From a virus, in IMG/VR virus record IMGVR_UViG_3300037258_000514, positions 96,001 through 160,000 of that record: a DNA stretch of 64,000 nt; one strand, 5' to 3'. The translations under genes were made by a program, and so were the position numbers. The notes below the pieces were generated by a model. That model made no database searches and was not told the DNA's origin. It worked only from the letters and a program-made list of their open reading frames with translations. How positions within the stretch are numbered: the first letter of the stretch is position 1; each line of letters starts with the position of its first letter. This document shows positions 3,995 through 61,038 of the stretch, piece after piece.

Positions 3995-5332
3995 TTATTG
4001 AATCTTCTCTAGTTCACGAATGAAATTGATGCAAGCTTCACTCCATCCGTCAATGTGTGTCCACTCTCTGTAACCAAGGCCGTTCTTGTTAGAAGCAACG
4101 TTAATTACATACCCTTTACCTTTGGGTGAAGCAATCCCATCGTGGGCTTGTTCATCAGTGAACACAATGATACGATCATAGCCTTCTCTTGAATTAATGT
4201 GCTGTAAAGCTCGTTCAAGATAAGTTGAACCGTGGGGCAAGCTGTTTACGATCGCATCACGTAGAGCAAATCCTCTACGAGCAGGTACTAGCACGCATTG
4301 AGAGCTGAATGTGTAGACAACACAATCAGAACAAATTTCACGCGCTAGCATTGCCACTCCACAGGCAGCATCCATTCTAGTGATCTCAGACTTTCCTGAG
4401 ATTTGCGCTTCCATTGAACCGGATACGTCTATTAATAGAATAGTCTTACCTGTAAGCTTTTCCTGCTCCTTGAGACACTTCATCATACCTGCTTCAAGTT
4501 CTTGCTCAAGTTTCGGAGCATAACGAGCAGCGGCGATGAAGCGGAACGGAAGTACGCGTTCGGTCTTGATGTTTAGCAACGCCTTACGAATATTGGAAAT
4601 GTCGACTCCTGCTTCTTGCATGTTACGCAAGTTGCGAAGGAGAGCCAAAGCGCCCAGCTGATTTTCTGCGAGCTTTGATTCCCATACTGCTTTCTTCTGT
4701 TCCTCTGTCTTCTTTTCCTCTCCTGCCGACAAGGCTACTTCCCAAGTCGAAGCAGGCGGGAGAGTTCCATTAACTAACTGTTTCCAAACTGCTTCTTGCT
4801 CTTCGTCTTTCGGCTTTGCGTGCGACAGGAACAAAACATCACGAAGCTTTACTGCATTGTCTTGGTTGTACTTCGCCAAGTCATAGGCAGAAAACTTATT
4901 GAAAGCCTTTGCAAGACCTTTTTTCACTTGAGCAGAAAGTGTTTTCTTTCCCGGTTGATCTGCCCAGTAGAGTGCAAGGAACTCTGCAAGTTCATCAGCA
5001 CGTTGAATTACACGTGCAAGTGTGTCAGCAACGAGACTACCATCAACATCTTTTCTCTTTGCCAACGAACGGACAAGGAAAAGAGGCATGTGACGAAGCT
5101 TCTGTTGTTCGCGACATTCGATTGCCAACTGTGCAACTTTGTTGGAATCAACATGCTTTGCCGCTTCGAGAACTTGCTCAGAGATCGTCTTACCATCAAC
5201 ATAAAACTGATCTTCAAATAACATCGTTGCAAGAGTTAAACGACGAAGCTGAAGTTCAGGCGAAATCTGAACCGCCTTTGCTCCTTCGTGTGTAAAAATT
5301 GGGTTGGATAGTACGGCTGTGTTTGTACGCAT
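3995..5332 (-). CDS. rsr: Ro60/Rsr ortholog (TROVE + vWA domain RNA-binding protein)
   Basis: THEGA, QRADELAEF, YDLAKY, LRDVLFLSHAKP, TWEVALS, ALLRNLRNM, LPFRF; vWA MIDAS DVSGSM...GST...TDEQ. Confidence 0.95.
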   Translation of the reverse strand: MRTNTAVLSNPIFTHEGAKAVQISPELQLRRLTLATMLFEDQFYVDGKTISEQVLEAAKHVDSNKVAQLAIECREQQKLRHMPLFLVRSLAKRKDVDGSLVADTLARVIQRADELAEFLALYWADQPGKKTLSAQVKKGLAKAFNKFSAYDLAKYNQDNAVKLRDVLFLSHAKPKDEEQEAVWKQLVNGTLPPASTWEVALSAGEEKKTEEQKKAVWESKLAENQLGALALLRNLRNMQEAGVDISNIRKALLNIKTERVLPFRFIAAARYAPKLEQELEAGMMKCLKEQEKLTGKTILLIDVSGSMEAQISGKSEITRMDAACGVAMLAREICSDCVVYTFSSQCVLVPARRGFALRDAIVNSLPHGSTYLERALQHINSREGYDRIIVFTDEQAHDGIASPKGKGYVINVASNKNGLGYREWTHIDGWSEACINFIRELEKIQ

Positions 5333-12796: not shown

Positions 12797-13675
12797 TCAC
12801 AATTTTCTCCTGCTTGTTTTTTTGAGTGATGTTAACTTATCTTCGACTAACTTCTCAGTCGGGAACACGCAAAGGTTAGGTCTCTTTGGAGAATACGTAA
12901 ATGAATCTGTACAATACACTTTGGTAAAGTCTTCGAGAAGCAGATCAACTCCTTTCGAGAATATACCATGTGTAACGTACAGGTAAAGTTCAGGATGATC
13001 TTTCTGTTGTTCTCGAATCTTCTGAGCAATCCCCTTAAATGTTCCTCCACCATCACAGATATCGTCTACAATTAATACACGTTTTGTGTTGATGATTGGA
13101 ACAGTAAATTCTAATAAAGCTCCCGTTGTTACATCACGTTTTTTCTGACAATGCAGAACAGGGATGCCAAGTTTTTGAGCAAACAGAAGATTATAGCGAT
13201 CAACCGATCCTTCATCCGGGAGCAGGATAGTTACATCGTCTAGCTGCGCAACCACCGATGCAATTATTGGTTCTACTCCAATATTAACGAAGTTGGCAAT
13301 ACAACTTTTTGCTGCGTGAGAGTGAACATCCAAAGCCAATACGCGATCACAACCCGTCATGTTTATCATATCCCCGAACACTTTGAGTCCAAAGCAATCA
13401 GCAGGTGTAAACCTTCTATCAGCTCTTGCATACGGCAAGTATGGGAAAACAAGGGAAACCGGAATTCTCCGGCCTCCAATTACTTCTCGAACGCAATCAA
13501 CAAGCATCGCCGTTTTAATGAATGATGAACGCGAAATGATTTCTACTTCATCACTGCGATCAATTAGTTTCGCTTGCTCACTGTTCATTCTAACCTGTAC
13601 TTCACCTGCTGGATATGTAAATAGACTATACAGAATACTATTGTCTTCTGGAATGCGGATTTTGTGTATTTTCAT
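12797..13675 (-). CDS. ribose-phosphate pyrophosphokinase-like protein (candidate Adps, NARP1)
   Basis: FTYPAGEVQV, PYLPYARADR, DVHS, PDEG, KKRD, PRT motif VLIVDDICDGGGTF, VTHGIFSKG. Confidence 0.88.
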   Translation of the reverse strand: MKIHKIRIPEDNSILYSLFTYPAGEVQVRMNSEQAKLIDRSDEVEIISRSSFIKTAMLVDCVREVIGGRRIPVSLVFPYLPYARADRRFTPADCFGLKVFGDMINMTGCDRVLALDVHSHAAKSCIANFVNIGVEPIIASVVAQLDDVTILLPDEGSVDRYNLLFAQKLGIPVLHCQKKRDVTTGALLEFTVPIINTKRVLIVDDICDGGGTFKGIAQKIREQQKDHPELYLYVTHGIFSKGVDLLLEDFTKVYCTDSFTYSPKRPNLCVFPTEKLVEDKLTSLKKTSRRKL

Positions 13676-15165
13676 GCTCTTACTCTCGCCCTAATTTCAT
13701 CAAACGTCTGCTCAACCAAAAGATTACCATTACTGAACACCTTTCTAAAAGCGCACGCGTCAAGTGCTGCTGGGTTAGCTCCTTGCTCAACGTAATAACC
13801 GGGGTTAGCATCATCGGGTCTCGTTCTATATACAGCAGGAATTCCTTTGTGTGATTTCTTAAAATCGTGATCTGTGATTGGGTTTTTGAAAATAGCTTGT
13901 ACGCCTTTCTCTGTTCGTACTGCTGTTGCTTTCATTGCCCAGTTGTAAGTGTCTCTGGTGACGTATTCGTAAGTATACGAACCGATACCAAATACCAAGT
14001 TGTACGGCGATAGTTTTAAGTCGTTTACTGTTCGATCAAGGATCGCAGAAGCACGTTCAACAGAAATTCCGTCTCCGTAGATTACACCAGCCTTGTTGAT
14101 GAGAGGAAGTCCTTTTCTGTTTGAATCTGTGCCGAGTACCATTGCAAGCAATTGAAGTGCTCCATAGTGGGCAGGATGATGCGCCAAATACAACGGGTAG
14201 TCTGTATTTGGAATGTCAATATCCTTATCACCACAAACAATCTTAACAGGATCGCCTGAATCCGGACGGATAACAAGTTTGCCATCTCTTGCCAAGATCT
14301 CTGGTTTTAATCTTTTAACATAATCAGTGATTACTCTCCAGAGATCCCAAGTGTCAGATACAATCGACACAATTCCTGTTGGATATACATCCATGATTAG
14401 GCGACGAAATGTTTCGAATTCTTCATCCTTACCACCAGCGCACATTACTGAGTGTTCAGTTGCAGGAACAGAGCCTCCGCAGCTAAGATTTGCACCATAA
14501 AATTCTTTCGCTGCTAAGATTGCAGGAATGGTATCCGTCCCATTAAAACTTAACAGGTGACCCATACCTGATAGGATTGCATCTTCATAACCCGACATAC
14601 CTCTATAGCTAAAGTCATGTCCCATCCAGTCAACAAAACCAAGATCAGTTTCGCCAGCCTTAGTAGCATACTCAACAAATAACTTTCTGAAACGCTGTGC
14701 CGTTGTTGCAGAAGTTGAAGGCTTCCACAACACGTTAGACATACACGTTTCAAGGAAGTTAGGCAACCAGAAACAGTTCTGATCCGTGTTTGTAATAACA
14801 AGTGCAGGACAACCAAGCGGGACTCTTGCTCCTTCAGGTAAAGCGTAGATATCAATTGGCAAGTATCCTAAATCGTGCAGATATTCAATGTGATCTACTT
14901 TTGGATTGGCTATGCCAAGTGTTGCTTTGATTAACTCTCTGTATTCAGAAAGTACCTCAGCTTTAGGTCGTTTAAAAAATCCTTCGTTCCAACCTTTCTG
15001 TAACCTGTTCTTGATAAAGTATTGCAGGCCAAAGAACACCGTATATTTCTGGTCAAGAATACGGCTTGAACGTGGCGTCCAGTTAGACCAGATTTGCTTT
15101 GTGCCTTCAGGATATTGACTAACGTGTCCTACTTTGTAAAAATCAATTTCAAACAGTGGATTCAT
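13672..15165 (-). CDS. nicotinamide phosphoribosyltransferase-like protein (candidate Namat, NARP1)
   Basis: DFYKVGH..QYP, HDFSYRG, SVPATEHSVM, SIVSDTWD, VIRPDSGDP, IYGDGI, FGIGS. Confidence 0.92.
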   Translation of the reverse strand: MNPLFEIDFYKVGHVSQYPEGTKQIWSNWTPRSSRILDQKYTVFFGLQYFIKNRLQKGWNEGFFKRPKAEVLSEYRELIKATLGIANPKVDHIEYLHDLGYLPIDIYALPEGARVPLGCPALVITNTDQNCFWLPNFLETCMSNVLWKPSTSATTAQRFRKLFVEYATKAGETDLGFVDWMGHDFSYRGMSGYEDAILSGMGHLLSFNGTDTIPAILAAKEFYGANLSCGGSVPATEHSVMCAGGKDEEFETFRRLIMDVYPTGIVSIVSDTWDLWRVITDYVKRLKPEILARDGKLVIRPDSGDPVKIVCGDKDIDIPNTDYPLYLAHHPAHYGALQLLAMVLGTDSNRKGLPLINKAGVIYGDGISVERASAILDRTVNDLKLSPYNLVFGIGSYTYEYVTRDTYNWAMKATAVRTEKGVQAIFKNPITDHDFKKSHKGIPAVYRTRPDDANPGYYVEQGANPAALDACAFRKVFSNGNLLVEQTFDEIRARVRA

Positions 15166-15797: not shown

Positions 15798-16927
15798 TCT
15801 TTGCTACTAACAGGCGTTGGAAACGATACAGTTTTACAACGTGCTCCTGTTAATGTTCCTACTGCTGCGATGTAGCTATCCATCGTAGTAGCATCAATGT
15901 CGTGTTTCTTTTCAAGAAGAGCAACTACCTTGTAAGTCTTCTTAAGTTGTTTTGCTACTTGACCGATCGTTAATCCGGCAGCTTTTCGCATAGATTCAAG
16001 CGCGCGGTTGTCTGTTACTTCAGGTCCAACACTCACAAGTTCGTAGCGTTGAACGAGAGTTTTCAAACGAGCATAAGAAGATTTGATAAGTGTTTTTGTG
16101 CTCATCTTCTTCTTACGGATATCACGCTTTACTGTCGGATGAGCAAGGAGCATCTTAATCATGTCCTTGCGATCCTTCTTAACCTCGACCACAAGTTTTT
16201 TCTCAAGTTCAGAATAACCTTCATGCTTGAAGATATGCGTGTCTTTGTCGCCTAGTTCCATCAGTACTTCGTATCGAAGTACTCTAATCTTTCCTGATTG
16301 CGCTGAAAGTACATCACGCGGATTTGCTTTTACAGCCATCGTTTTCTCTCCATAAACTCCATACTGTTTTGAACAGATATGGAATCCAGAAGAGCACTGT
16401 GTATACCAATGGGGATCACCCTCTTTACGAGGCATCATGATGATCTGTCCTGGGCTGTTGTCAACTGTCTGCGAATGCGTATCCATGTTGTTACGTTTTA
16501 CTGACTTGTATGCAAGAAAGTGTCCATCATCTGTGATTGGTAAGTCGTTGTTAACAAGCCAATCATAGAATTCTTTAATTGCATGTGGTTCAGGATTCTG
16601 ATACAAGTTATTCATGAAGCGAATAAGATGACTTACGTTCTTTCGCCCCTCAATCATATCCAAAATTCGTTTACTAAGCGAATTGTGAATCTCTTTGTCT
16701 TTGTAAAAGACTGCGTCTTTCTTCACAGTCACAAGTCCATGAGATTCGACTGAGATATTTTCTGCAAGCGTAACTAAGCCCGGAATTTTTTTCCATTCCT
16801 TAGCTTTGATTGCAGCTTTCATCTTCTTAAAAGTTGGATGAGACTCTTGCAATGCGAAAGGCTTACCTCCAACAATTACTTGGATAAAGTTATCTTTCAA
16901 AACAAAGGGAATAGTTTTAGTTGGCAT
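15794..16927 (-). CDS. rIIB: rIIB-like protein with C-terminal XRE-type HTH
   Basis: FMNNLYQNP, LPITDDGHFLAYKSV, CSSGFH, VKANPRDV, KIRVLRYEV; downstream of rIIA. Confidence 0.88.
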   Translation of the reverse strand: MPTKTIPFVLKDNFIQVIVGGKPFALQESHPTFKKMKAAIKAKEWKKIPGLVTLAENISVESHGLVTVKKDAVFYKDKEIHNSLSKRILDMIEGRKNVSHLIRFMNNLYQNPEPHAIKEFYDWLVNNDLPITDDGHFLAYKSVKRNNMDTHSQTVDNSPGQIIMMPRKEGDPHWYTQCSSGFHICSKQYGVYGEKTMAVKANPRDVLSAQSGKIRVLRYEVLMELGDKDTHIFKHEGYSELEKKLVVEVKKDRKDMIKMLLAHPTVKRDIRKKKMSTKTLIKSSYARLKTLVQRYELVSVGPEVTDNRALESMRKAAGLTIGQVAKQLKKTYKVVALLEKKHDIDATTMDSYIAAVGTLTGARCKTVSFPTPVSSKE

Positions 16928-19283
16928 AGATATTCTTCTTCTCCTCAGGAGTTACTGTTGTTTCTTCTGCGTTGTTGTTCGCAATAGCAAAGGCTAACGT
17001 TACAATTTCTTCGTTAGCTTTGCGATCAGCATCTTCATCTTTCAGACGAATGTATTCAATTACAGGTTCTGCAGCGAAAGAGTACAAGTACGATTCCTCT
17101 ATTATTTGTAGTAATGGATATTGTTTTAATATTTTCCTCCACTCCTCCTTAAAGTTAAACGCGTGTTTAATCTCAAATTTCTTTAAACGTGTTGCATTTG
17201 CGATTACGATTGCAAGCCCTTTAGGCGCTTTTCCAACTGTAATGACCAGTGAACAAAACGCTTGCATGGGACTATCTTTTGGTAGCATTTGATTGCTGCC
17301 TATCGTTTTAAGAATTGGTAAGAGCTTAGTTTTGAATGGATAGACATCAAAACTGAGTGATAGTTCGATCTCACGAGTGATAACAGAAGTAGTTTTGTCC
17401 AAAACCAGATTAATTACGTTAATCCAATTCGGATCTTTTACAAGTTGGCTGCTCTCATTAAAACCGTAAATCTTTGTCGTGTCATCAATCCCGAACAGTT
17501 TTGATGTCTTTGCTGCTTCGATAAACGTATTAAAATCTTCTGCGAACTCAAAACTTCCATCACTCGGTTTTAAACTTTTTAGAGGAATGTAATAGTTCTT
17601 TCCCTCTATTGGTTTAGTAGCTATGTCGATCGGTTCCCAAGCATTTAACCATCCTGCGCGTTCGTATCCATCGTTAAATTTCGCGATGTCATTTTGTTTG
17701 TTGAAGTATAAAATATCTCTATTTACTGTCTCGCCTTGAGGGATTACAGGATCCATTAGCGGTTTGTATTTCGCTTTAAGCGCGCTTAGCAAAACATACG
17801 GTGGATTACCTAATCCCGCAATTATTGTTTTAGCATCTCTTAGCACGCGCTCGATAGGCACATCTTTTCGTGTACGTACGATATGATAAATAGTTTCAAT
17901 TTTACCACCGTACGCAGATCTTTCGAGATATTGCGTGTTGTCCGCTGCGTTTTGAAGTAAGTAGTGTATGTAACGTTCACCGCCGCGCAACGTATCATCA
18001 ATAACAAACAATACGTCGCTTCCAACTTCGATTTGTCTATCGTAATAAGTTTTCTTGCGATAGTTTAAATCTAAATCTTTCTGCGCACTAACTCTACCTT
18101 CGGATGCTAACTCAAAAACTTTTTCCTTCTTAGCATCTGATCTACTTCTACTGCTTTTTGTAAAAACATTTATTTTAACTTCGGAATAATCCAACTCATT
18201 TACTGAGACTTTTCCGTGAGTTAAAGTAAAGTTTGGATATTGACCATCGAACACCCCGCTGTCAATTGCACTTTCATACAATGCAGCTATATTAGGCGTA
18301 TTCGTCATTGTGAATAAAAGAATCATGGCCTTCCAACTACAATCACACGCCGCAATTTGCTTCTTAGCGTTATCTATTAGCTCAGCGTTGATCTTGTCAT
18401 AAGCTTTCAAGATATTTGCGATCGTTCTATCATCATTGCTTAGTGTTTCTCGCGAAGCTGCAACAGACAACTCACCAATTGGAAAGAAGATATCAATAGG
18501 CAAATTGTGAATTGTTGCTTGCATGAGAGACATTTTGCTAGAGTCAATACTTCCAACTTTGTACTTAACCATGCCTTGAATTGCACGAATACCTGTAACT
18601 CCGAGATATGAGTTACTTCTTAATCCCCAGGATTCATTTTTCTGTAAATATTCCGTTTTTTTGATATGGATCTCACGGTTAATTGTTGGAGTAGGATTAA
18701 AAAACTCTAATACACTTTCAGTGTTGTTTTGAAATTCTCTAATATCACCCTGCTTAACAGGAAATGAAACCTCCAGTCCGTTTTGTGCATCAGGAGTATC
18801 TTCTTCAGTTTGAAGAAGTATTTCAGGCGTACCCTGCGATCCTAAGAATGCAGAGTAAACGCGAGTCTTCCCCTCAAAGCGACTAATAACTGTAAACCCT
18901 TCTGTGTAGCAGAAAGGACTCTTACTACCTAATCCTAGTGCTCCAACAAAAGCGTTTGAATTAGATTTGTTAGTTCCGAAGTAAGTTGTATATAGATCAA
19001 GAATGTCTTGATGCGATAAACCTACTCCGAAATCCTTTACTGAGAAGAAAGGTTCAAACGTTGTGGGTAAGTGCAGTTCAAAAGGAACTTCCTTCCTTTC
19101 TGCTGCAACATGGGCGTCGTAAGCATTACAACTCAGCTCACGAATAATTGCTTGAATCTTGTTGTTATATAGTCCTGATGAAAGAATCGAGAACGCTTCT
19201 TTCGAAGCGGCGATTTGAAATGCTTTCGGTTGTTCGATTGCATCTCCAAGTTCAACAGAACTACTTGTTGTTTGCATTTTCAT
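16917..19283 (-). CDS. rIIA: rIIA-like protein (N-terminal GHKL ATPase)
   Basis: IIRELSCNAYDAH, VKDFGVGL, GALGLGSKSPF, ASRETLS. Confidence 0.9.
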   Translation of the reverse strand: MKMQTTSSSVELGDAIEQPKAFQIAASKEAFSILSSGLYNNKIQAIIRELSCNAYDAHVAAERKEVPFELHLPTTFEPFFSVKDFGVGLSHQDILDLYTTYFGTNKSNSNAFVGALGLGSKSPFCYTEGFTVISRFEGKTRVYSAFLGSQGTPEILLQTEEDTPDAQNGLEVSFPVKQGDIREFQNNTESVLEFFNPTPTINREIHIKKTEYLQKNESWGLRSNSYLGVTGIRAIQGMVKYKVGSIDSSKMSLMQATIHNLPIDIFFPIGELSVAASRETLSNDDRTIANILKAYDKINAELIDNAKKQIAACDCSWKAMILLFTMTNTPNIAALYESAIDSGVFDGQYPNFTLTHGKVSVNELDYSEVKINVFTKSSRSRSDAKKEKVFELASEGRVSAQKDLDLNYRKKTYYDRQIEVGSDVLFVIDDTLRGGERYIHYLLQNAADNTQYLERSAYGGKIETIYHIVRTRKDVPIERVLRDAKTIIAGLGNPPYVLLSALKAKYKPLMDPVIPQGETVNRDILYFNKQNDIAKFNDGYERAGWLNAWEPIDIATKPIEGKNYYIPLKSLKPSDGSFEFAEDFNTFIEAAKTSKLFGIDDTTKIYGFNESSQLVKDPNWINVINLVLDKTTSVITREIELSLSFDVYPFKTKLLPILKTIGSNQMLPKDSPMQAFCSLVITVGKAPKGLAIVIANATRLKKFEIKHAFNFKEEWRKILKQYPLLQIIEESYLYSFAAEPVIEYIRLKDEDADRKANEEIVTLAFAIANNNAEETTVTPEEKKNIYAN

Positions 19284-36648: not shown

Positions 36649-36921
36649 TTAGTAGTTAACATACTCTTTCGTTTTATCTGCATTAGGACGACGGCGACCT
36701 GTTTCAGGATGACGCATCCATCCATCCGGTTCACCTTTACCATCCCAAACTGCTAAGGCGACAACTGCCGCCTCTACAGTATCGTATCACCAACTATTGC
36801 TTAACCACTCCGCGTTAGTTGGTCCATAGATAATCCTCGCACGATCGAACGTTAGAGGAACTACCCATGCAGAATTTCCATCTTCAAAATCTTTCTGTGT
36901 GATATAATATTCTTCTTTCAT
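36649..36921 (-). CDS. candidate selenoprotein (90 codons, in-frame TGA at codon 45, W-U-Y)
   Basis: Frame continues through TGA (36787-36789) to TAA; AGGAG RBS; SECIS-like hairpin downstream. Confidence 0.7.
36749..36780 (-). promoter_or_regulatory. bacterial SECIS-like hairpin
   Basis: ACUGU-A-GAGGCGGC-AGUU-GUCGCCUU-A-GCAGU; apical loop starts 20 nt after UGA and has G at position 2. Confidence 0.65.
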
Positions 36922-36935
36922 AAACATCTCCTCTG

Positions 36936-58771: not shown

Positions 58772-59266
58772 TTGCCCGGCAACCAAAGCACATTTTGTCG
58801 AAAGACAGATATAGAGCTACATCTTCTTACAATGCTAACAATAATTAATCAAACGCGCCAAGAAAGCGCTTCAAGAGAAATTGTACCAGCATACTATCAG
58901 AATCAGGACGATACAACTAAACCCTGTCAACTGTTAACGCGCGCTGATGCTCGAATAGCTAAGAAAATGAACAAAGGGCGTTTTATTTGCAATGGAAAGA
59001 AATTTCGTTTTCATGATCAAGCCCCCGTTGCGTTAGTAGAAGTTTTACAAAAACCTTCGATTAATTCTTGCTGCGGTATTTCTAAACGGGAAATGCTTGC
59101 GAATAACGAAATACCTGTAGCATTGAATATATCGCCCTTAGAGATAATGAAAGCAAAAGAAAAAGTTAAAGCTTATCCATTTGTCCATGATACACGAGCA
59201 GTTTTAGCTTTCGGATCTTGGAGAAGTTTTACTCCGCAAAATACTAGAATACAATTAATTAAGTAA
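58772..59266 (+). CDS. hypothetical protein between terS and terL
   Basis: ORF track; start uncertain. Confidence 0.45.
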   Translation: MPGNQSTFCRKTDIELHLLTMLTIINQTRQESASREIVPAYYQNQDDTTKPCQLLTRADARIAKKMNKGRFICNGKKFRFHDQAPVALVEVLQKPSINSCCGISKREMLANNEIPVALNISPLEIMKAKEKVKAYPFVHDTRAVLAFGSWRSFTPQNTRIQLIK

Positions 59267-61038
59267 TGTCTAACGATCTTCTTGCATATAGTAATACAGC
59301 TATTCAATCAGCAATCCTAAATTCTAGCATCCCTCATGTAAATGTTGCACAAGCACTTGATGAGCCGGATTTGTTTGCTGAATACTTTTTACAAACGGAT
59401 CTATGGGATATTCAAAGAAAGATCCTTCAAGCCTTAAAGAAAAGTAGAAGAGTAGCAGTAAAGGCATGTCACGCTAGTTCAAAAACATATACTGCTGCAA
59501 GGGCTTTACTTTGGTTTTTAGCATCATTTGAGAAATCAACTGTAGTTACAACAGCACCGACCTGGATTCAGGTTGAGAAATTGTTATGGGGTGAGGTTCA
59601 TTCGGCTTTAACTAAGAGCCGATATCCATTTCCAAAACCTCTTAAGACTGAGTTAAGTTTTGCACCTGAATTTCCTAAACGTGAAGCTTATGGTCTTTCC
59701 ACATCCGTTACAAACCAGGATGAAGGCGTAAAGTTTCAAGGTATTCACAACGATCACGTTTTAATTATTCTAGACGAAGCTCCTGGTGTTGAGCCGAAGA
59801 TTTGGCAGGCTGTCGATGCTGCCATGTCAGCAGGTAATGCAAAGGTTTTAGCAATTGGTAATCCGACGTGGTCTTCAGGACCCTTTCATGATGCTTTCAC
59901 AAAAGCCCGGTTTGCTTGGAATTGTTTTACAATTAATGCTTTTGATACACCTAATTTTGTAGATATTCCGCACACGGCTCCTTTTCCGGTTAAAGATAAC
60001 TTAGTAGATAAAGATGGTAAAGTAATTGAAGGTTCCAGACTTGATAATTTACTAAAGATCGGAAAAGAAAACGATGCTTTCTTGGATGCTGACGAATTTG
60101 TTCGCCCTTACTTAACCAGAAGGAGATGGGTTTACGAACTGTATTATACATGCGGTCCCGGACATCCATATTGGGAAGCTCGTGTACTCGGAGAATTTCC
60201 AAAGCAAGATGAATTTGCTCTTATTAGTTTAGATTGGCTTGAAAAAGCCAAAGTACGTGAATTAAACGGTACAGGTAAGGTTAGTGCTGGGATAGACGTA
60301 GCCGGCGGTGGATCTGCAGAAACAGTTTTATGTGTTCGTAGAGGTCCACAGATAATCGAACTTAAATTTTGGCCTATAAGCGATCCTCGCGGCGAGATTG
60401 TCGCTGTTCTTAACAAGTATAGAGGAGAACTTCAATCAGTAAATGTTGACTCTATAGGTGTTGGATATTATCTTTACAAACATCTAGAAGAGATAGGTTT
60501 TCCAGCGAATCCAATTATTGCTCAAGCTACAAGCTCCGACTCAGAAAAATATCGCACATTAAAAGATGAATTCTACTGGGGATTAAGACTACGCCTTGAG
60601 CAAGGTGATTTTAGTGGATTGGATGATGAGACCACAATCGGACAACTGGCTGGAATTAGATATAAACATAATTCCAGAGGACAGGTAGAAATAGAATCAA
60701 AGGATGAAGCAAAGAAACGAGGAGTTCCGTCACCGGATAGAGCTGAAGCAGTAATGCTTGCTTTCGGAACTCATCAAGTTTGCTACGGAGTACTTGACGC
60801 TCAACGACAAGAGAAGATGCAAATGGAAAAAGTACAATCATCGGTAATGATTAAACCAACAACATCAGACAGTCAACTCAGCTGTCCTGAATGCCAAGCT
60901 ATTTGTATAGCTCCTTGTCAAGGAGGATGGCGGTGTGGACAGTGCGGACATCAATGGAATTCAAAGCCTAATGTTATCTCTCCTCAAACGAGAGGAGACT
61001 ACTTGGCAAAAGCTGAAGTAGCAAAATCAAGGTTATGA
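59266..61038 (+). CDS. terL: terminase large subunit with C-terminal Zn ribbon
   Basis: VAVKACHASSKT (variant Walker A), ILDEA, IGNP, VLGEF, GIDVA, SPDRAEA; CPEC...CGQC tail. Confidence 0.9.
   Translation: MSNDLLAYSNTAIQSAILNSSIPHVNVAQALDEPDLFAEYFLQTDLWDIQRKILQALKKSRRVAVKACHASSKTYTAARALLWFLASFEKSTVVTTAPTWIQVEKLLWGEVHSALTKSRYPFPKPLKTELSFAPEFPKREAYGLSTSVTNQDEGVKFQGIHNDHVLIILDEAPGVEPKIWQAVDAAMSAGNAKVLAIGNPTWSSGPFHDAFTKARFAWNCFTINAFDTPNFVDIPHTAPFPVKDNLVDKDGKVIEGSRLDNLLKIGKENDAFLDADEFVRPYLTRRRWVYELYYTCGPGHPYWEARVLGEFPKQDEFALISLDWLEKAKVRELNGTGKVSAGIDVAGGGSAETVLCVRRGPQIIELKFWPISDPRGEIVAVLNKYRGELQSVNVDSIGVGYYLYKHLEEIGFPANPIIAQATSSDSEKYRTLKDEFYWGLRLRLEQGDFSGLDDETTIGQLAGIRYKHNSRGQVEIESKDEAKKRGVPSPDRAEAVMLAFGTHQVCYGVLDAQRQEKMQMEKVQSSVMIKPTTSDSQLSCPECQAICIAPCQGGWRCGQCGHQWNSKPNVISPQTRGDYLAKAEVAKSRL

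Follow-up and report, generated by a model that had tools for sequence, protein, structure and literature searches.

Results

A candidate read-through gene and a SECIS-like hairpin in an uncultured phage

The window (the whole stretch of DNA analysed here, 64,000 nt) represents positions 96001-160000 of a 175,952-bp IMG/VR virus record, which derives from an uncultured phage and has an estimated completeness of 86%. A candidate selenoprotein gene lies on its minus strand at 36649..36921. The gene consists of 90 codons including an in-frame UGA, followed by TAA, and it forms a single ORF only when this TGA is read through. The start ATG at 36921 is preceded at a distance of 6 nt by the ribosome-binding site GAGGAG (36928..36933), and an alternative ATG at 36927 abuts this site and adds two residues. 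The in-frame UGA, which is the proposed Sec codon, is located at 36787..36789 and is codon 45 counted from 36921; the true terminator TAA was read from the sequence at 36649..36651, all on the same strand. The peptide around the TGA is ...EWLSNSW-[TGA]-YDTVEAAVVALAVWDGKGEPDGWMRHPETGRRRP...VNY. With the standard code, only a 46-aa ORF starting from ATG 36927 is listed, and it is followed by a gap in the ORF track. The sequence-only reading had proposed that this gap is filled by a read-through frame with a good ribosome-binding site, and the frame was confirmed at these positions on the minus strand.

A SECIS-like hairpin was found at 36749..36780 on the minus strand. Its stem of 5 + 8 bp contains one A.A mismatch and starts 6 nt after the UGA, and its apical loop, AGUU (36763..36766, minus strand), begins 20 nt after the UGA. 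Both the 13-bp hairpin and the position of its loop had been described beforehand exactly as we found them. The hairpin had a minimum free energy (MFE) of -20.9 kcal/mol (z = -4.04), a stability not reached by any of 200 dinucleotide shuffles.

The phage record has a GC content of 41% and contains a large terminase, a portal, a DNA polymerase, an rIIA-like gene and ca. 30 tRNA genes. Two of these, the rIIA-like gene (16917-19283, minus strand) and the portal gene (59266-61038, plus strand), lie in the window (L103). The former shares 40% identity with T4-like phages in its N-terminal third, and the latter is ca. 30% identical to that of the nearest cultured phages, which are small Brevundimonas siphophages; the two thus show 30-40% identity to cultured phages of unrelated hosts. 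A Gp23-type capsid had no match in the phage record, and no match to the window was obtained when cultured phages were searched for the nearest DNA. Judging from these comparisons, the phage looks like a member of a lineage without cultured relatives.

Five tRNA genes (Trp, Asp, Gln x2 and Glu) at 508-2769 on the minus strand form the end of the array of ca. 30 tRNAs, which extends upstream in the genome to about C1:81000. The phage thus encodes its own tRNA-Trp(CCA), and the anticodon UCA is absent from all phage tRNAs, those of the array included. ARAGORN also called a tRNA with the anticodon CUA ('Pyl') outside the window (G000:C1:41272-41347, plus strand), on the strand opposite to the array and in a locally GC-rich stretch; because of its non-canonical T-loop this call is probably a false positive, an amber suppressor being the less probable alternative. 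A Ro60/TROVE + vWA protein (3995-5332, minus strand) and a nicotinamide/nicotinate phosphoribosyltransferase (NAMPT-like; 13672-15165, minus strand) are further phage-encoded proteins of the window.

The candidate gene may be an early gene, as had been suggested, judging only from its position in a minus-strand block of small genes near rIIA. No conserved gene neighbourhood was found across ca. 55 loci of the family, and the window neighbours of the candidate gene gave no family matches.

Relatives carry Cys or a stop codon at the TGA position

A word-indexed search with the read-through protein returned seven relatives, and a profile search yielded 1892 cluster representatives at E<=1e-3. Matches of the read-through protein in tblastn came from jumbo phages of Caulobacter, Brevundimonas and Sinorhizobium. 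The TGA column was Cys in all of the first seven homologs, in an invariant W-C-Y motif, and in 130 of 156 aligned representatives of the profile search; Cys was also present in all homologs of the cultured Caulobacter, Brevundimonas and Sinorhizobium phages. The motif W-C-Y ... WDG.GEP.GW.RHP.TGRRR, which the sequence-only reading had put forward for this phage family, is therefore real, and the residue facing the TGA is Cys, not Trp.

We then collected the family by scanning IMG/VR, JGI/ENA metagenomes and GTDB genomes with the family alignment, and the codon at the centre of W-x-Y was read directly from the DNA. It was TGA at 36 loci, TAG at two, TGT or TGC at 16, and a codon for Asp, Glu, Ile, Leu or Thr at 15. 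The TGA loci together with the window and one TGA form in a contig of a metagenome-assembled genome (MAG) comprised 32 distinct TGA sequences, and TAG occurs in two more sequences. The stop forms share 36-75% protein identity with the window protein, range from ca. 41 to 65% in GC content, and come from many independent assemblies and unrelated samples. Since the same stop codon appears in dozens of independent assemblies, it is neither a sequencing error nor a lone nonsense mutation; these were two of the outcomes that had been named in advance as fatal to the selenoprotein proposal, and the 32 distinct sequences that keep the TGA speak against both. Relatives that retain the TGA together with the hairpin, the occurrence of which had been left to be checked, do exist, and the hairpin is retained in them with compensatory changes at synonymous sites.

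Approximately 15% of the relatives have Asp, Glu, Thr, Ile, Leu or another residue at the site, indicating that the residue is not universally essential. In the protein tree, stop and sense forms are interleaved with few supported branches, the protein being too short to resolve them. Three sense-codon relatives with Ile or Asp at the site (L067:418-1446, L074:730-1308 and L075:1486-2091) have the domain of ca. 90 aa fused to C-terminal extensions of 100-250 aa.

A difference between the forms was observed at the residue after the invariant GW. This residue is Met in 25 of 33 stop forms and His in none of them (the window Met codon lies at 36715-36717), whereas in the Cys forms it is His at 10 of 12 loci and in 73 of 129 representatives. 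The His/Met difference may represent clade history; it would also be expected if a His activates the thiol and can be spared beside a selenol.

A degraded copy was found in a close relative on the 180-kb contig Ga0335069_10000067 (L059:750-970; also L018 and L057). Its start, MGELT, is shared with L022 (75% identical), and its last 37 residues are also kept (76% identical); between them, unrelated sequence with stops has taken the place of the middle part, to which the TGA and the hairpin's 5' arm belong. As this copy is clearly degraded, the gene is dispensable.

The hairpin is restricted to stop forms and covaries

The presence of the hairpin was scored with a fixed criterion, namely at least five contiguous pairs, a loop of 4-5 nt starting 19-21 nt after the stop, and G at loop position 1 or 2. 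By this criterion the hairpin was present in 30 of 33 stop forms versus 0 of 24 sense forms (Fisher 3.9e-13, a value not corrected for phylogeny), and in the three remaining stop forms a local hairpin still folds, with a mismatch or a shifted loop. In the window and almost all relatives, the distance from the stop to the start of the loop is 20 nt, nine rows of the ungapped alignment having a 5-nt loop or a one-base shift. The loop sequence is GGUC in most stop-form rows and AGUU or CGUG in others, and its G and U hardly vary (columns 31 (G) and 32 (T) of alignment A3, conserved in at least 90% of the 33 rows). At the codon that supplies this G and U, most stop forms have Val and the sense forms vary; an RNA constraint is thus visible at the protein level.

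The stem was examined for covariation in the same 33 rows. Two of its pairs connect third codon positions (synonymous sites): pair 27:36 covaries through GC (8 rows), UA (6), CG (5), AU (2), UG (2) and GU (1), and pair 24:39 through GC (10), CG (8), GU (7) and AU (4). The covariation score of the 6-bp upper stem was 0.291, compared with 0.193 for shuffles (0 of 500 reached it), and was above that of every slid register. RNAalifold run on all 33 ungapped rows returned only two pairs and did not recover the helix, which we attribute to the nine rows that are register-shifted or have 5-nt loops. With the 24 in-register rows, the 6-bp helix was recovered de novo (-11.2 kcal/mol), and one of its pairs showed six pair types and 15 double-sided changes without a break. 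As the 24 rows were chosen for having the stem, only the covariation, and not the percentage paired, carries weight here.

The published model of bacterial SECIS elements specifies a loop of 3-9 nt, an upper stem of 4-16 bp, and at least one G among loop positions 1 and 2, in most cases with G or U next to it, together with a spacing of 16-37 nt and an MFE of -7.5 kcal/mol or lower (PMC13188914). The window element agrees with this model in all four respects: a 4-nt AGUU loop is carried on an 8-bp upper stem, the G stands second in A-G-U-U, the spacing is 20 nt, and the stability given above is well within the limit. The 33-nt core of the relatives (n = 33) had a mean MFE of -12.6, two of them being weaker than -7.5. 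Searches against Rfam, both at the gathering threshold and at E<=10 on the element, returned tRNAs and a chance snoRNA match only and no SECIS family.

In E. coli, the fdhF gene for the selenocysteine-containing formate dehydrogenase H has an element in which the TGA is followed after 18 nt by a GGTC loop (5,420 E. coli genomes). The G and U of the fdhF loop are the bases recognised by SelB. The phage gene resembles bacterial selenoprotein genes of the fdhF type, whose SECIS is bound by SelB, in having an in-ORF stem-loop after the UGA, a small loop with G then U and a spacing within 16-37 nt; GGUC, the fdhF loop, is the commonest in the phage family, Cys homologs exist, and TGA still acts as a stop elsewhere. 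It differs in the position of the loop (20 nt versus 18 nt in fdhF) and in being carried by phages that bring none of selA, selB, selC and selD.

Decoding machinery, hosts and TAG forms

The sequence-only reading had noted that selA/B/C/D are missing from the window. This held, and it extends to the whole 176-kb record, in which no tRNA-Sec over the Rfam cut-off, no SelB wing domain, no SelA and no SelD were found. The tRNA-Sec and SelB were likewise not found in four other phage records with stop forms, two of which are complete. With the Sec machinery absent from the phage, Sec decoding must use host factors, and the host would thus be expected to possess SelB and tRNA-Sec.

The family is nearly absent from bacterial genomes, with four matches in 185,579 species genomes and two in 401 Pseudomonadota genomes, the latter both sense forms. 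The sole full-length TGA form in bacterial genomes lies in a doubtful MAG bin labelled Candidatus Peribacteria, in which no tRNA-Sec over the cut-off was found. One of the rare bacterial-genome copies (L091, scaffold9 of Salipiger mucosus DSM 16094, and L094) is a Cys form in a genome with a tRNA-Sec scoring 49.2 bits, which is over the Rfam cut-off; the use of Sec by a host therefore does not make the Sec form obligatory.

Two sequences carry TAG at the Sec/Cys codon, at L034:603-605 and L041:1627-1629 (contigs Ga0308174_10379004 and Ga0066703_10020688). Both have the same GGUC hairpin and an intact downstream frame. L041 has a GC content of 65%, and the gene immediately upstream ends with TAG 130 nt earlier; the neighbour gene of the TAG form gave no phage match. 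According to a passage of PMC10778597 that cites Mukai et al. 2016, SECIS-directed insertion of Sec at UAG or UAA is natural in bacteria with a matching tRNA-Sec anticodon, and sense codons are also naturally recoded to Sec by a SECIS and a matching tRNA-Sec. Given such natural recoding of UAG, the TAG forms fit the Sec reading and predict hosts with tRNA-Sec(CUA). The recoding of TAG to Sec described in that passage (PMC10778597, citing Mukai et al. 2016) and L034 and L041 are alike in having TAG at the Sec position and a GGUC hairpin; the link to these contigs is a proposed one, and the window gene uses UGA. As read from their sequences, the TAG forms suggest either hosts whose tRNA-Sec reads UAG or a read-through signal that is independent of the codon.

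The latter possibility is the core of an explanation in which read-through is programmed but does not involve Sec: by slowing or remodelling the ribosome, the hairpin would allow the UGA to be read by a near-cognate or suppressor tRNA for Trp, Cys or Arg, and a low, regulated amount of full-length protein would arise in addition to a 44-residue peptide. The two TAG relatives with the same hairpin are the best argument for it, as the element then works with more than one stop codon, and the tolerance of non-Cys residues at the site in ca. 15% of the relatives, the phage-encoded tRNA-Trp(CCA) and the fact that the Sec machinery has been tied to no host can be added on the same side. However, a generic leaky stop would not be expected to coincide exclusively with the conserved Cys codon in 34 diverged sequences, SelB-type features are seen in the hairpin (20-nt spacing, a loop of small size, and a G and U that hardly vary, as in fdhF), no phage tRNA has the anticodon UCA, and the TAG forms also fit Sec, its SECIS-directed insertion at UAG being described as natural in the passage cited above (PMC10778597). 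Taken together, read-through without Sec appears improbable, although most of the probability left over by the Sec reading falls to it.

The downstream half is conserved as part of one predicted domain

In the 33 codons after the recoded stop, pairwise divergence among 31 stop forms was 0.27, 0.25 and 0.60 at codon positions 1, 2 and 3, and the same stretch contains no stop in frame 0 versus 21 and 36 stops in the other two frames. Such a pattern is that of protein-level (purifying) selection and shows that the downstream half is translated in frame. The most conserved block of the family, WDGxGEPDGWxRHPxTGRRR, sits downstream of the recoded stop, and no in-frame start codon or ribosome-binding site was found downstream of the TGA in the candidate gene.

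AlphaFold2, run with a 47-row alignment, predicted that both halves form one compact domain (pLDDT 93.5, pTM 0.84). In the model, strands at residues 10-13, 18-24, 30-36 and 44-48 are followed by a helix at 51-60 and an ordered C-terminal coil (numbered from ATG 36927), and the recoded residue is located at the end of strand 4, just ahead of the helix.

These data bear on the view that the gene is broken or split, i.e. that the TGA is a true terminator, only a 44-residue N-terminal peptide is made, and the rest is decaying or separately translated. The standard code does end the ORF at the TGA, and a degraded copy exists in the close relative on the 180-kb contig. Nevertheless, purifying selection acts on the 33 stop-free downstream codons in 31 stop forms, the best conserved family motifs lie beyond the TGA where neither an in-frame start nor a ribosome-binding site is available, and in the predicted single domain strands 1-4 come before or at the site and the helix and the C-terminal motif after it. 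A broken or split gene is thus very improbable.

No match for the read-through window protein was obtained in Pfam or PHROGs (E<=0.1), and a sequence profile search of PDB gave none either. Matches to phrog_24748 were obtained with the Cys-form proteins P0004 and P0009 and the Salipiger copy (3e-10 to 5e-9), and these proteins align over their full length with the window protein. The members of phrog_24748 include gp257c of Caulobacter phage CcrBL9, gp271c of BL47, XYS97833.1 of Sinorhizobium phage Phosso and BAMBUS_01390 of Brevundimonas phage Bambus. These Cys forms and the window protein are alike in W-C-Y, in (W/F)xGxGEPxGWxRHPxTGRRR, in a length of ca. 90-115 aa and in their location among small hypothetical phage genes. 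Unlike the window gene, the Cys forms have a TGT or TGC codon, lack a SECIS-type hairpin and mostly have His, not Met, after GW; the window protein itself falls below the PHROG model.

Structural searches were similarly without a named relative. Foldseek gave no match against PDB at E<=0.001 and BFVD was likewise uninformative, and in a wide VIA-align search the best Z was 5.5, the matches being uncharacterised phage proteins or common beta-meander pieces; nothing in these searches pointed to a thioredoxin or other known redox selenoprotein fold. A Protein Atlas feature search with a natural Cys homolog returned only clusters of hypothetical phage or Pseudomonadota proteins. The candidate protein has no Cys besides the Cys/Sec site and no UxxC motif.

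TGA remains a stop codon elsewhere in the phage

TGA terminates 63 of 229 ORFs of at least 80 aa in this phage (27%), as expected from the earlier statement that TGA is a normal stop elsewhere. After TGA, the frame closes at a median of 8 codons, the same as after TAA and TAG. In 11 stop-form relatives, TGA also terminates the same gene. Since TGA ends these 63 ORFs and the gene itself in 11 relatives, it has not been reassigned but is recoded at one place. A genome-wide scan detected 174 TGAs with at least 30 open codons on either side, among which only the TGA of the candidate gene has a strong hairpin at SECIS spacing; no further selenoprotein gene with a convincing hairpin was found in this phage by the scan.

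An alternative genetic code (TGA = Trp or Gly) is the least credible of the explanations considered, since, although one TGA form stems from the MAG labelled Candidatus Peribacteria and that lineage is close to groups that reassign TGA, TGA ends 27% of the phage ORFs with the frame closing at once and stands both inside the gene and as its terminator in 11 relatives, and an assembly error, which would share this low standing, is contradicted by the recurrence of the same codon in dozens of independent assemblies.

Discussion

The results of this study make it very likely that UGA-45 is read as selenocysteine, and that the gene encodes a phage selenoprotein decoded by SelB and tRNA-Sec of the host. 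The original interpretation as a selenoprotein with a bacterial SECIS element is supported by the Cys homologs, the conserved TGA, the covarying hairpin and the agreement with the bSECIS criteria (PMC13188914). The dependence on SelB, the insertion of selenium and the chemical role of the residue are what we infer from these observations.

The proposed process is as described below. When the mRNA is translated during infection, a SECIS of the bacterial type would be provided by the hairpin 3' of the UGA. Host SelB carrying Sec-tRNA(Sec) would bind the apical xGUx loop, and Sec would be incorporated at UGA-45, where translation would otherwise end. The phage would supply the mRNA signal only, with SelA, SelB, SelC and SelD all supplied by the host. 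In the protein, Sec would take the place of the single conserved Cys in a large family of small phage proteins (W-C/U-Y ... WDGxGEPDGWxRHPxTGRRR). Sec is decoded slowly and with low efficiency, an odd feature in a phage gene that counts against the Sec reading. On the same side stand the missing Rfam match, the non-Cys residues in ca. 15% of the relatives, the TAG codon of L034 and L041, and the lack of a tRNA-Sec over the cut-off in the doubtful bin with a TGA form.

Cys is otherwise absent from the window protein, so that its only reactive group, whether redox or nucleophilic, is probably the selenol. The sequence-only reading had referred to the Cys/Sec as catalytic, and it may be so. That the protein has a single-residue redox or nucleophilic centre and is a small, host-directed phage protein is a reasonable possibility, though one to which we would give somewhat less than an even chance. 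A wider picture can be drawn of a phage-specific selenoprotein family that is widespread, has a small fold for which the searches gave no structural match, and uses Sec as the sole reactive residue, in which the phages follow the Sec decoding of their hosts, the UAG forms are also selenoproteins, and the change from His to Met marks a catalytic partner that a selenol of low pKa would not need; we put forward this combination only tentatively and consider it rather doubtful as a whole.

The window family was matched to none of the known selenoprotein families or oxidoreductase folds, and its element has no Rfam SECIS match. Selenoproteins of eukaryotic viruses are represented by the glutathione peroxidase homologs of molluscum contagiosum and fowlpox viruses. 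These resemble the present case in that a virus-encoded gene relies on the Sec machinery of the host. They differ in being captured host genes with a eukaryotic SECIS, whereas here the family is phage-specific and the SECIS is of the bacterial in-ORF type.

The literature searched describes selenoproteins for cells and for a small number of eukaryotic viruses; no phage-encoded selenoprotein was found in it, and phages and viruses go unmentioned in a 2026 review of prokaryotic selenoproteomes (PMC13188914). Mechanistically, the decoding corresponds to that known from bacteria, and the novelty lies in its use by phages and in the particular protein family.

If the Sec reading is true, standard gene callers systematically split or miss such genes, as illustrated here by a 46-aa ORF followed by a gap, and phages would exploit the SelB pathway of their hosts with an mRNA hairpin alone. 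The TGA or TAG form could then mark the host of a phage as a selenocysteine user and indicate by which codon. A large family of small phage proteins with one key Cys/Sec would also offer a concrete handle on function, and the cultured phages of Caulobacter, Brevundimonas and Sinorhizobium that carry the Cys form make the family experimentally accessible.
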